Part shown: positions 1 to 3,665 of the stretch, piece after piece
How positions within the stretch are numbered: the stretch's first letter is position 1
Layout: the number at the start of each line of letters is the position of its first letter
Source: a bacterium
GTDB lineage: Bacteria > Zhuqueibacterota > Zhuqueibacteria > Oceanimicrobiales > Oceanimicrobiaceae
DNA length: 64,000 bases
Assembly (NCBI GenBank): GCA_037446635.1
Contig: JBBIIG010000011.1
Span: forward strand, 311 to 64,310
Reading direction: 5' to 3'
The notes under the pieces: generated by a model
Told to the model about the DNA's origin: nothing
What the model saw: the letters and a program-made list of their open reading frames with translations, nothing else
The model's database searches: none
Translations under genes and position numbers: made by a program

Positions 1-1656
1 GAAGATGCGGAGGAGCGTTTTGCTGCGATCGACGTTCAGGTCTCAGAAATCGAAGAAGAGGATGTGTTTGGAATACTTCGTGAGCTGCGGCGCAAAGCCA
101 AAGAGCACGACCGCCAGTTGCTGCTGTTGTGCGACGAAGCGGAAGAGCTCATCAACATCGAAAAAAATTCTCCGCAAGCTCTGCCCAAGCTGCGGCGCGC
201 GCTGCAGAAGGGTGAAACCATCCGCACCGTGCTCGCCGCCACCAAACGGCTGCAAATTCTCGAACACAGCTCCGCGCCCGAGACTTCGCCCTTTCTCTTC
301 GGTTTCGTTCCCCCCATTTATTTGGGCCGGTTGGAAGATCCGGAAGCGCGGCGGCTGATCGGTCTCGGCAATTTCGACGCGCCGGTCGTCGAAGAAATTA
401 TGGCAAAGACCAACAATCATCCCTACCTGCTGCAGTTGATCTGCCGGCGTTTGTACGAAACGCGCGATCTGCAAAAAGTCATTGAAGAGCTGAGCGCCGA
501 CGATCTCATCGCGCGTTTCTTTGCGGTGGATTTTCAAAACCTCGACGACAAAGACCAGCAAGTTCTGCTGCATATTCTGCAGAATAAAGCGCTGACTCTG
601 AAAAACCTGCAGGATCATTTAAGTGAGCCGCCGGGGAAACTGATCCCCCGCCTTCTCCAGCTCATGCATTTAGGGGCCATTAAGGAGGAAGATCGCCAAT
701 ATAAAATCGCCAATTATTTTTTTGAAAACTGGCTGCAGCGGGAGAAGGAAAATTTATTTTCGGACTCCGCGTTGAAACGCGCCATGCCGACGCAGCTCAT
801 CACGCCGCCGGAATTCGACGCCAACGAATTGCCTAAAATCGGGCAAACGCTTGGTGAACATGAAATTTTGGAAAAGCTGGGATCGGGCGGCATGGGCGCC
901 GTGTTTAAAGGCAAAGACCGCAAGCTCAACCGCACCGTAGCGCTGAAGGTTTTGCTGCCGGCTTACATGAACGATGCGGAATTTAGGGAGCGCTTCATTC
1001 TCGAAGCGCAGGCGGCGTCGGCGCTCAACCATCCGAACGTCTGCACCATCTATCAAATCGGCGAACACAACGGCGTTTATTTCATTTCAATGGAATTTGT
1101 CGAAGGGCAAAATTTAAGAGCCTGGCGCAAGGCCAACCCCTTCGATTTCAACAAATGCTTGGAGCTCGCGATTCAGACGGGCAAGGGGTTGGCGCACGCC
1201 CACAGCAAAGGCATCGTTCACCGCGATATCAAGCCGGACAATGTGATGGTTACCACGGAGGGTGTCGCCAAAATCATGGATTTTGGCCTGGCGAAATCGC
1301 TGCAGCGCACGCGCGTCAACATCACCAAAACTGGCGCCGCCTTGGGTACCCTGTGCTATATGTCGCCGGAGCAAGCCAGCGGAGTGCCGGCGGATCACCG
1401 CTCCGATATTTTCTCGTTCGGGGTGCTGCTGTACGAATTGTTTTCGGGAAAACTGCCGTTCTTTGGAGAGGTGGAAATAACGGTCTTGTATTCGATTTTG
1501 AACGAGGAACCCGCGCCGCTGCGGGAAGCCAACCCGGATTTACCAGAGACATTGGAAAGAATCGTGCACCACGCCCTGCAAAAGGACCGGGACAAACGCT
1601 ATCAAAATATGAACGATCTGGTTGTGGATTTGGAAGTGGTGAGATGTGAAACGTGA
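1..1656 (+). CDS. 5'-truncated P-loop NTPase (STAND/AAA-like) region fused to a C-terminal Hanks-type Ser/Thr kinase
   Basis: Frame open from base 1. Walker B-like LLLLCDEAE and NHPYLLQ. Kinase motifs LGSGGMG, VALK, HRDIKPDN, DFG, YMSPE. Confidence 0.85.
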   Translation, partial: EDAEERFAAIDVQVSEIEEEDVFGILRELRRKAKEHDRQLLLLCDEAEELINIEKNSPQALPKLRRALQKGETIRTVLAATKRLQILEHSSAPETSPFLFGFVPPIYLGRLEDPEARRLIGLGNFDAPVVEEIMAKTNNHPYLLQLICRRLYETRDLQKVIEELSADDLIARFFAVDFQNLDDKDQQVLLHILQNKALTLKNLQDHLSEPPGKLIPRLLQLMHLGAIKEEDRQYKIANYFFENWLQREKENLFSDSALKRAMPTQLITPPEFDANELPKIGQTLGEHEILEKLGSGGMGAVFKGKDRKLNRTVALKVLLPAYMNDAEFRERFILEAQAASALNHPNVCTIYQIGEHNGVYFISMEFVEGQNLRAWRKANPFDFNKCLELAIQTGKGLAHAHSKGIVHRDIKPDNVMVTTEGVAKIMDFGLAKSLQRTRVNITKTGAALGTLCYMSPEQASGVPADHRSDIFSFGVLLYELFSGKLPFFGEVEITVLYSILNEEPAPLREANPDLPETLERIVHHALQKDRDKRYQNMNDLVVDLEVVRCET

Positions 1657-1677
1657 AAGTTGTGTAGATCCCCCCCC

Positions 1678-1725
1678 AAAAAAAACTGGGACTTTCTCAT
1701 AAATCCTTTTATAAAAAAGTCCCAG
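1678..1725 (-). terminator. Intrinsic terminator (minus strand)
   Basis: CTGGGACTTTTTTATAAA-AGGA-TTTATGAGAAAGTCCCAG followed by T8; the G-U pairs form only on the minus strand. Confidence 0.7.
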
Positions 1726-1805
1726 CATCAGAAGAGTCACAGCATCCCTTTTCCCGAAAAAGACCGTTGATTTGCAGATCGGCGCCTCCATGCTCCGAAA
1801 TCTGC
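1678..1805 (-). ncRNA. Candidate sigma54-dependent GGA-rich sRNA (CsrB/RsmY-like)
   Basis: Follows a -24/-12 motif. Three hairpins with GGA in or at the loops, 6 GGA in about 125 nt, ending in an 18-bp stem plus U8. Confidence 0.5.
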
Positions 1806-1815
1806 TGCTCTTTTT

Positions 1816-1831
1816 CGCAAGTTGTATGCCA
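1816..1831 (-). promoter_or_regulatory. sigma54 (-24/-12) promoter
   Basis: TGGCATACAACTTGCG matches TGGCAY-N5-TTGC. Confidence 0.65.
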
Positions 1832-1914
1832 CAAGAAAGCCAACAAGTTTAACTTAATTAGTTTTAAATAGCTTACACTTACTACTCAAAAAGCCGGACG
1901 AGGATTAAACTTGT

Positions 1915-1936
1915 TTGAACAATGTACAATGTTCAA
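1915..1936. promoter_or_regulatory. Palindromic candidate activator site
   Basis: TTGAACA-N8-TGTTCAA, 85-105 bp upstream of the sigma54 motif, separated by an AT-rich tract. Confidence 0.4.
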
Positions 1937-2044
1937 CGATGAGACAGGGGCCTGCAGAAACTTTTTAAAAATATCAAAAACTCGTGAGAGTTTTTCGAGG
2001 TATAGATTGTCATTATTTTTCAGTAACGGGTGTAATTTTAATTA

Positions 2045-2163: not shown

Positions 2164-2541
2164 CTAAAATTGCTCGATAGTTTTGATTAATGAGTTGGTC
2201 AGCCCACGGTAAGATTTTTTGGGCGGCACCACAATCGCCAGCACCACTTCCTGATTAAAAGCTTGAAAGAAACGAAAGACGACTTTCCTGCGGTTGTTTC
2301 CTTCTACAATTAATTCCTTGATGTTGGAAATCTGCCCCATCAAATCCGCCATTTTTTTGAGCTCACGAAAGAGGAGAGAAAGCTCAACCAGTCGATCTTT
2401 GGGCAGCACGCCATTTCTATAGCACTCGGCAATGGGTAGGCCCTCGCTGGAAAACAGATGCACCATATCATAATTTCCGCTCTCTAAAATCTCGCGCATG
2501 GCATCTTGAATGAGAAATTGCGGCGGCTTTTGTTGATCCAT
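2164..2541 (-). CDS. Roadblock/LC7 domain protein
   Basis: LFSSEGLPIA motif; size; follows mglA in the operon. Confidence 0.7.
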   Translation of the reverse strand: MDQQKPPQFLIQDAMREILESGNYDMVHLFSSEGLPIAECYRNGVLPKDRLVELSLLFRELKKMADLMGQISNIKELIVEGNNRRKVVFRFFQAFNQEVVLAIVVPPKKSYRGLTNSLIKTIEQF

Positions 2542-2553
2542 TTCGAGCTCACC

Positions 2554-3144
2554 TCACTGTTCCACTAATGCGTCAATTTTATAAACCACTTCCGAGATGA
2601 TCATTTTCAGGGTAGAGACCACCTCCACGCCGCGCGAGGCGATGGCCTCGGTATGCGGCACGCCAAAAAAATTCAGCTTGGCCTGCATGGTTTCGATGGT
2701 TTCAATGTCCCGCAGATCGCGTTTGTTGTATTGGATGACCCAGGGAATATTTTGCAGCGACATGCCCATCTCGATCAAATTTTTTTCCAAATCTAAAAGC
2801 GAGTCGAGGTTTTCGCCCATGCGATTTTGCTGCGAGTCGGCTACGAACACCACCCCGTCGGCGCCGCGCAAAATGATCTTCCGGCTAAAGTTGTAATAGA
2901 CTTGTCCGGGAACCGTATAAAGATTGAACCGCGGCTTCAACCCTTTGATGCGCCCCAACTCGAGCTGCATGAAGTCGAAATAGAGCGTGCGTTCTTCACG
3001 CGTTTTGAGGGAAACCAGCTCGCTGCGCATGGTGGGGTCGAGGCGGGTGAAGATGTACTCCAGGTTGGTGGTTTTACCACTCAACCCTGGCCCGTAATAA
3101 ACAATCTTCAGGTTGATTTCCTGTAATGCTTTGTTGATGAACAT
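2554..3144 (-). CDS. mglA: MglA small Ras-like GTPase
   Basis: KIVYYGPGLSGKTTN, RTLYFDF, TVPGQ, NKRD. Confidence 0.93.
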   Translation of the reverse strand: MFINKALQEINLKIVYYGPGLSGKTTNLEYIFTRLDPTMRSELVSLKTREERTLYFDFMQLELGRIKGLKPRFNLYTVPGQVYYNFSRKIILRGADGVVFVADSQQNRMGENLDSLLDLEKNLIEMGMSLQNIPWVIQYNKRDLRDIETIETMQAKLNFFGVPHTEAIASRGVEVVSTLKMIISEVVYKIDALVEQ

Positions 3145-3164
3145 GGCGGTTTTGAAAATCAACG

Positions 3165-3665
3165 CTAAAGTTTCAACGAGCGGCTCAGCTCTTCGCTCAA
3201 CAACGTTTTGAACTCGAGATCAAACAGCTCTTTGGTTTTCTTTTCCTCCTCCTTAACCGCTCCGAGGAGCTTCGTCAACTCGTCGATGGCTTTTTTAGTG
3301 TAGATGCGAATGATGCCCAGCGCCACCTCGGCGTCGAAAATCACCAGCAGCACAAAGTTGAAACCCACGTTGGAGAGATACATGTTGGTATGTTCGCCCT
3401 CGTGGAAAAGAAACTTGAACGCATCTTTCTCCCCCAACATCGCGGCGATTTTGGCGGTGGCGGAAAAATTGTTGGCGGCGAGCGAGGAGATGATCGGAAG
3501 ATCTAAATTATCGACGCTGCCTTTGTGAAGAATCGGGTAACCGTTCGACTCGCAGAAAACAATCAGCTCCGCCCGTGTATGAGCAGCGAGATCGTCCAGA
3601 ACTTTGCTGATGCCGTCATAAACGTCTTCGGAAAGAATCAGTTGGCTGCCGTTGTTCATATCCAT
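3165..3665 (-). CDS. mglB: MglB roadblock protein (GAP of MglA)
   Basis: SSLAANNFSATAKIAAMLGEKDAFKFLFHEGE; directly upstream of mglA. Confidence 0.88.
   Translation of the reverse strand: MDMNNGSQLILSEDVYDGISKVLDDLAAHTRAELIVFCESNGYPILHKGSVDNLDLPIISSLAANNFSATAKIAAMLGEKDAFKFLFHEGEHTNMYLSNVGFNFVLLVIFDAEVALGIIRIYTKKAIDELTKLLGAVKEEEKKTKELFDLEFKTLLSEELSRSLKL

Follow-up and report, generated by a model that had tools for sequence, protein, structure and literature searches.

Among the RNAs that act by sequestering a protein, those of the CrcZ type are driven by sigma-54 and sequester Hfq. The locus described here departs from that precedent in that Hfq (PF17209) was not found in its source genome (G000). 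Nearer in form are CsrB and CsrC, and RsmX, RsmY and RsmZ, of Gammaproteobacteria, which the part of PMC7652899 drawn on here describes as stand-alone RNAs with an intrinsic terminator and with ANGGA motifs presented in hairpin loops. The element that we report resembles them in each of these features, and in occurring with csrA and without fliW. It differs in having two to three sites rather than many (22 GGA in Escherichia coli CsrB; PMC7652899), in matching no Rfam family, in belonging to another phylum, in carrying a sigma-54 box and enhancer repeats instead of BarA/UvrY control, and in its derivation from coding sequence, with one site placed in the terminator loop. In the sections of PMC8249394 considered here RsmY and RsmZ are GacA-dependent and RsmZ is lowered by RpoN, and these sections therefore supply no precedent for a sigma-54-transcribed sponge.

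Two further kinds of precedent were already known, namely small RNAs left behind by genes (OxyS, StyR-3) and CsrA antagonists borne on mRNAs (the flaA leader, RsmU). According to the portion of PMC8825220 used here, OxyS and StyR-3, like the element, occupy a locus that holds an intact gene in relatives, show homology on the coding strand and keep regulator sites of the parent; StyR-3, which also derives from a 5' end, is listed there without known function, whereas OxyS derives from a 3' end, replaced a gene in one family and is strongly diverged. CsrB and CsrC are absent from the ORF-overlap table (S3) of the same paper. The element is set apart from both OxyS and StyR-3 in that selection on its RNA structure operates even where the gene is intact, its coding and non-coding states are interleaved on the phylogenetic tree, and its predicted function is titration of a protein. 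The leader of flaA mRNA in Campylobacter jejuni, in the sections of PMC4894983 that bear on it, carries ANGGA hairpins, one of them over the ribosome-binding site, and titrates CsrA, an anatomy shared by nine coding copies of our element; flaA works with FliW in flagellar control and retains its coding region, whereas two of the three sites of the element and its terminator-like stem lie inside coding sequence, and neither fliW (21 family genomes) nor flagellin (source genome) was found. RsmU of Xanthomonas campestris, as presented in the part of PMC7694677 used here, is likewise an mRNA-derived RsmA/CsrA-binding sRNA of no earlier family, CsrA binding being only predicted for the element; it is processed out of a 3' UTR whose gene is still present, whereas the element comprises a 5' end and coding start, has its own promoter, and has outlived its gene.

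Protein-sequestering RNAs such as CsrB could plausibly arise by a route in which a CsrA target turns into a CsrA sponge. Within the openly accessible literature that we searched, one supplement included, we found no traced case of this route, no Csr-type RNA traced to a coding region or reported from KSB1 bacteria, and no paper joining KSB1 with CsrA or a 'GGAM' RNA motif with CsrA. Here we describe an element, present throughout one bacterial family, that on comparative sequence evidence is, in 12 of 21 genomes, the retained 5' end of a sigma-54-promoted gene, orfX, whose body has been deleted; we predict that it is made as a stand-alone RNA of ~128 nt, which is likely to bind and titrate CsrA. 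What is new is the presence of apparent living intermediates and of a repeated gene-to-RNA transition; because alleles with the intact gene and alleles reduced to the RNA occur side by side in one family, in which the body was repeatedly lost, the path is directly testable. The element would also represent a candidate CsrA antagonist for KSB1 bacteria, which have csrA without fliW, and an RNA structure written over a signal-peptide-like coding region.

Anatomy and conservation of the RNA unit

The element lies on the minus strand of the window (the whole stretch of 64,000 nucleotides analysed), where a sequence-only reading had proposed a sigma-54-driven small RNA with GGA motifs in hairpin loops, acting as a Csr-type sponge. 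The promoter had been correctly recognized: minus-strand positions 1831-1817 read TGGCATACAACTTGC, a -24/-12 box (1817..1831) kept in 21 of 21 family copies. The sigma-54 consensus by itself is not beyond chance (0.56 matches expected per 64-kb window; present in 45 of 100 shuffles), and we take the box to be real because it is conserved in all 21 family genomes. There are 177 sigma-54-like boxes in the source genome, and only that of the RNA unit has two looped ANGGA motifs downstream. The predicted RNA of ~128 nt (1678..1805, minus strand), with its start placed by promoter geometry and its end by the U tract, scores 90.6 bits with covariance model R1 and folds at -46 kcal/mol (z -4.21), none of 200 shuffles being equally stable.

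Hairpin 1 (1774..1805, minus strand) starts at 1805, as had been claimed, and presents an AUGGAG hexaloop (1791-1786) at the former Shine-Dalgarno of the parent gene. The middle domain (1729..1769, minus strand; former codons ~4-18) consists of a CAG..GAGUC / GACUC..CUG helix with a GGA-rich tip that includes AGGGA at 1749-1745; it is degenerate in the source genome. This is the conserved middle helix, and the second hairpin put forward earlier (CTTTTT-CGGG-AAAAG) proved to be a local fold of the genus. The terminal hairpin, or intrinsic terminator stem (1685..1726, minus strand; former codons ~20-33), bears AAGGAU at its tip (1708-1703) and agrees with the terminator as first read: a terminator scan gave a stem at 1726-1685 of 19 pairs, counting a closing G-U, a four-nucleotide AGGA loop, and then eight T, the U8 tract of 1678..1685. 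Two copies, L134 (G019) and L136 (G003), are shortened to about 100-110 nt; these keep the promoter, the 5' ANGGA and the terminal hairpin and have lost most of the middle domain.

The strand imbalance noted at the outset is confirmed, with six GGA on the minus strand (1796, 1789, 1754, 1747, 1722 and 1706) and a single one on the plus strand. Their supposed placement in loops holds in part. Only those at 1789 and 1706 are fully exposed ANGGA loops in the source genome (unpaired probability 1.0); the GGA at 1754 is mostly exposed yet forms no ANGGA, that at 1747 is partly paired, that at 1722 is buried within the terminator stem, and that at 1796 is mostly paired and absent from a close relative. 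The usable sites number two to three, not six.

The stretch 1679-1949 is matched without a break by contigs of a close relative from two runs, and a contig of this relative passes into other sequence right past the T tract. In this relative the N of the hairpin-1 ANGGA is changed, which removes the ATG, and a Shine-Dalgarno base is changed as well; one A-U pair is kept as G-U, and three one-base indels fall in the RNA (one run). An 83-codon ORF at 1791-1540 was rejected as a gene: its ATG sits in the hairpin-1 loop and reads ACG in the close relative (two runs), where the ORF is also hit by the three one-base indels.

A covariance model search retrieved one full copy from each of 21 family genomes and no credible copy from 104 other genomes of the class, where the single weak match had an E-value of 0.038. 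The model was trained on 18 copies, leaving out G003, G011 and G019; these three, and two new metagenome copies (L146, L148) among five metagenome pattern matches of which three duplicate known genomes, show the same pattern. With BLAST the 3' part of the element was recovered from 17 of 20 family genomes and from none of 40 genomes further removed. In a 21-row alignment, which was fitted to the structure and whose rows include kin that are not independent, 94.7% of 561 cells are paired, double changes occur in 14 of 27 pairs, and slid controls give 35-55%. The terminal helix has 18 pairs, with 96.8% of cells paired and 8 pairs changed on both sides, and helices 1-2 (middle domain, alignment A4) have 93.7% and 88.5% of cells paired. 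All 21 copies carry ANGGA at the terminal-hairpin tip, the N being G in 9, A in 7, T in 4 and C in 1, and all 21 carry another within the first 48 nt; the consensus of the middle-domain tip is GGAA(A/U/C)GGG(G)A. Invariance is highest in GACUCUUCUG and at the G-rich base of the terminal stem, a stretch that is base-paired in the consensus.

Two checks suggested with the sequence-only reading have an answer: the GGA loops are conserved among relatives with covarying stems, and comparison with Rfam gave no family match. A search of the element with E up to 10 yielded three chance matches, none Csr/Rsm, and a search of 10 loci at gathering score yielded one unrelated tRNA and no CsrB, CsrC, RsmX, RsmY or PrrB/RsmZ. 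By these sequence comparisons the RNA unit is a real conserved element. It appears to be non-coding, with its own promoter and terminator, in the source genome and in most non-coding copies, though not in the nine coding ones.

The parent gene and the loss of its body

The earlier statement that the unit contains no credible CDS holds for the source genome; what had been missed is that nine relatives have an intact gene whose start is homologous to the element. In these nine of the 21 genomes the RNA sequence constitutes the leader and first ~33 codons of orfX, a gene of 181-190 residues; hairpin 1 carries a GGAGG Shine-Dalgarno followed by ATG in all nine, and the encoded N-terminus is basic and then hydrophobic, resembling a signal peptide as judged by eye. 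The orfX body is missing from the other 12 genomes, including G000, in which the only trace of the gene (C11:2050-1952; tblastn and hmmsearch) is a translatable N-terminal remnant at 1642..1740 (minus strand; residues ~14-46) that a profile search matched to positions 9-46 of 187 (E 9.5e-4). Where two coding copies share a residue, they also share its codon in 86% of 674 pairs in the RNA region versus 38% of 1963 in the body; the RNA region is therefore nearly frozen at synonymous sites, and selection there acts on RNA. The terminal-loop codon specifies Trp, Gly or Arg in different coding copies, with its GG-A invariant.

Outside the family, the orfX body occurs in 36 of 146 genomes, distributed over six families. 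A sigma-54 box is present at 20 of the 21 outgroup loci fetched, where ANGGA lies mainly at the Shine-Dalgarno, and some of these loci share neighbours with the element. Since the body extends beyond the family and the RNA is confined to it, the gene predates the RNA structure; the orfX leader and first ~33 codons form three conserved helices under RNA-level selection in this family alone. NCBI names for the orfX protein read 'candidate division KSB1 bacterium' both inside and outside the family, with one cluster otherwise labelled Calditrichota/Caldithrix and one Bacteroidota, and KSB1 is the likely lineage label for the relatives.

The orfX protein, for which a large protein library holds 39 representatives, has no Pfam match above cut-off and no solved relative by sequence. 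Its model (pLDDT 80.5) predicts an Ig-like beta-sandwich, with no Foldseek match at E <= 0.001 and only unnamed Atlas clusters. The best structural matches were to MPT63 (Z 7.9, rmsd 4.1, 107 aligned) and YcdA (Z 7.4), none reaching 8; any resemblance to the fold of DUF4352 / MPT63-like Ig-fold proteins is model-based, of middling Z, and accompanied by no Pfam match. Scanning genome contigs with one protein query returned its own locus only. A second, near full-length orfX match occurs at G009:C127:9912-10436 without a second RNA match, in a genome with 8% contamination.

On an RpoB tree of 23 genomes, from which a divergent second G014 copy (74% identical to the first) and a second G020 piece (95%) were dropped, G000 and G001 share a starred clade with four coding genomes; the coding genome G017 lies among non-coding genomes, nested there beneath two starred branches. 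A single clade of all 12 non-coding genomes was rejected by the AU test (p-AU 3e-32). Plain parsimony on this tree gives three changes; if the body was never regained, we infer that it was lost at least four times (G000 with G001, G003 with G019, G015, and at least once among the rest), a phylogeny of loss that is based on RpoB alone. In a tree of the two upstream genes (16 rows) G017 again groups with the large non-coding set (80/94 support), and the starred branches there require just one change; this placement favours vertical descent over regain, without proving it. The orfX protein tree gave no resolution.

Coding and non-coding copies also differ in the RNA itself, in contrasts that are best read as trends, the genomes being related and p values thereby overstated. 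GGAGG is present in hairpin 1 of 9 of 9 coding copies and of 1 of 12 non-coding copies, the one being G000; in the other non-coding copies the Shine-Dalgarno now reads GGAU, GGAC or GGAA, with ANGGA retained. Mean hairpin-1 energy is -10.4 kcal/mol in non-coding versus -5.0 in coding copies, the hairpin-1 GGA is exposed at >=0.8 in 10 of 12 versus 1 of 9, exposed ANGGA sites average 2.5 versus 1.2, and the 9 nt past the stem contain a mean of 6.6 versus 5.1 T, with weak U tracts in some non-coding copies (4/9 in G005, 5/9 in G001 and G020). The sigma-54 box and upstream repeat are kept in all 12 non-coding and all nine coding copies. Over the aligned stretch, eight of the 12 non-coding copies are out of frame, one more contains an in-frame stop, and compensating shifts occur in one, the frame alignment being poor for G003 and G019. 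The non-coding copies L010 (G002) and L011 (G006) contain an open hydrophobic frame of 44-47 codons, possibly a small membrane peptide or the mark of a recent loss.

Proposed CsrA titration and competing explanations

The Csr-type sponge originally proposed is upheld as regards the presence of csrA and rpoN and the conservation of GGA loops on covarying stems; the origin of the RNA in a parent gene had been missed. As we envisage it, an activator would switch on the sigma-54 promoter, transcription would proceed from about 1805, and RNA polymerase would stop at the terminal hairpin (1685-1678); CsrA dimers would occupy the pair of ANGGA loops, and probably the GGA of the middle domain, and their titration would relieve the mRNA targets of CsrA. 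Some loops approach the CsrA SELEX consensus RUACARGGAUGU (PMC7652899), with agreement at 11 of 12 positions in hairpin 1 of G006 and G007 and at 12 of 12 in the terminal loop of G015. Capacity would be about one CsrA dimer per RNA, because only two to three sites are exposed. This small number counts against a sponge, as do the weak U tracts of some non-coding copies, the open frames of G002 and G006, and two further observations: the terminal hairpin, with 18 pairs and, in the source genome, a four-base loop, is unlike the SELEX ligands, which in the part of PMC7652899 drawn on here mostly have stems of four pairs or fewer and six-base loops; and csrA was not found in the fairly complete genomes G010 and G013, where ANGGA loops persist.

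In coding copies, CsrA bound to hairpin 1 would cover the Shine-Dalgarno and block translation. More speculatively, the block may allow premature termination at the in-frame hairpin, so that the mRNA would already yield a short sponge, and repeated loss of the body would thereby be explained. We offer as a tentative scenario, in which our confidence falls somewhat short of even, that the family preserves living stages from target mRNA through dual-function RNA to dedicated sponge. Ancestral signal-peptide codons of a sigma-54-driven secreted-protein gene would have been overprinted with CsrA hairpins and an in-frame terminator, forming a self-adjusting switch in which free CsrA blocks translation, the transcript ends early and a sponge results; at least four lineages would then have deleted the protein and tuned the RNA to the CsrA consensus, without FliW or Hfq.

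A cis-acting explanation is, in our estimation, unlikely. It holds that the element is a CsrA-controlled leader or attenuator of orfX and that, after deletion of the body, read-through puts a receiver-domain histidine kinase under sigma-54 and CsrA, titration being incidental. In its favour, all nine coding copies have hairpin 1 overlapping the Shine-Dalgarno, as is classic for a repressed leader. Downstream, a same-strand receiver-kinase gene follows the element in 11 of 12 non-coding genomes, starting 69 nt (G010) and 56 nt (G011) past the stem with no separate promoter pattern found there, but in 8 of those 11, and in three coding genomes, this gene has a sigma-70-like pattern of its own. 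The source genome provides a further exception: the next gene, encoding a Ser/Thr kinase (1..1656, plus strand; Pfam), is convergent and stands in place of the receiver-domain kinase gene of most relatives, no ortholog of the latter was found in G000, and the element is still intact. No competing antiterminator was seen in six of the 21 copies, folded with the 3' arm blocked, and an antiterminator switch was rejected on these six; the U tract is longer after body loss, not shorter.

We regard as quite unlikely a stand-alone sRNA that serves some other partner, either mRNAs, with which it might pair via its purine-rich middle loop, or a different protein, and whose GGA are structural or inherited from the Shine-Dalgarno and Gly codons. 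The small number of GGA sites would suit it, as would the persistence of ANGGA loops in two genomes in which csrA was not found. It can also draw on the high invariance of GACUCUUCUG and of the terminal stem at its G-rich base, although this stretch is paired in the consensus. For a partner among mRNAs or other proteins one must further set aside that hfq was not found in the source genome and that hairpin 1 drifts from the Shine-Dalgarno yet keeps ANGGA; moreover, the loops hold A and GGA constant while the N between them varies, which is the pattern given for CsrA/RsmE recognition in the relevant section of PMC7652899.

That non-coding copies are pseudogene stumps with a side function, as terminator/insulator or as source of a short hydrophobic peptide, is very improbable, for although G002 and G006 keep their open frames and the terminal hairpin is the best-conserved part, the middle domain being mostly lost in G003 and G019, the frame is broken or shifted in most non-coding copies as detailed above, and all 12 retain the enhancer repeat, the sigma-54 box and a fixed ANGGA loop despite diverging flanks, which an insulator would not keep.

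Upstream region and host factors

Two tandem inverted repeats of the form TGT-N11-ACA, at 1930..1946 and 1912..1928 (minus strand), constitute the conserved upstream repeat and are candidate sites for a sigma-54 activator. Every one of the 21 family genomes has at least one TGT-N11/12-ACA at 70-140 nt ahead of the sigma-54 box, against 3.7% in shuffles, and 14 of the 21 have two or more. The source genome has about 30 strong Sigma54_activat matches. An activator common to the RNA unit and the csrA operon was considered and gained no support: the repeat model, built from only six copies with that of the RNA unit among them, scores 36.6 at the RNA unit and -2.0 at the csrA operon promoter, the next best score being 19.1. 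The second-best upstream-repeat score belongs to a sigma-54-like box at G000:C18:63897 (minus strand), which has a GGAAAGGGA leader and a weak BLAST match (L024) and is possibly under the same activator as the RNA unit.

Between the enhancer repeat and the upstream gene, the spacer at 1949-2164 contains an inverted repeat near 1975-2000, and its 1949-2064 portion is partly replaced in a close relative. Beyond it lie, on the minus strand (2164..3665; Pfam), a Robl_LC7 (MglB-like) gene, a small GTPase (MglA-like) gene and a gene of 125 aa for which the Pfam search gave no match. The 125-aa gene adjoins the element at 16 of 21 family loci and the parent gene at outgroup loci L037, L040 and L055; the MglB-like/MglA-like pair followed by the 125-aa gene is kept near the element or the parent gene across the class.

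For CsrA titration by a sigma-54-transcribed RNA, the reading that we prefer, the presence of csrA and rpoN in the genome had been named as a check, and both were found: the source genome (97% complete) has one csrA, at C1:77450-77222, and rpoN is located at G000:C27. Of 20 relatives, 16 also have csrA; it was not found in G001, G010, G013 and G014. The case of G014 looks like an assembly gap, and G001 is only 74% complete; in G010 (98%) and G013 (94%) neither csrA nor its TPR neighbour was found, and the ANGGA loops are kept. Searches for fliW were negative in all 21 family genomes, as were those for flagellin and hfq (PF17209) in G000.

Aligned with solved CsrA structures, the CsrA of the source genome retains the N-terminal strand and Arg44, which we take to be the key RNA-binding residue. 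Fourteen family CsrA proteins (from L001, L063-L067, L070, L072-L075, L079, L085 and L086) are nearly identical at residues 1-54, mostly have Asn at position 55, a residue linked to control by FliW in Bacillus, and finish in variable tails of low complexity that look, from their sequences, as if a FliW-binding extension had decayed.

In the source genome csrA lies in an apparent sigma-54 operon (G000:C1:80882-75721; L001 and upstream), with a sigma-54 box at C1:79324. The order is activator gene, box, a 260-aa sigma-70-family factor, a GAF protein, a 148-aa secreted-looking protein, csrA and a TPR protein; the 260-aa factor is FliA/WhiG-like by eye.
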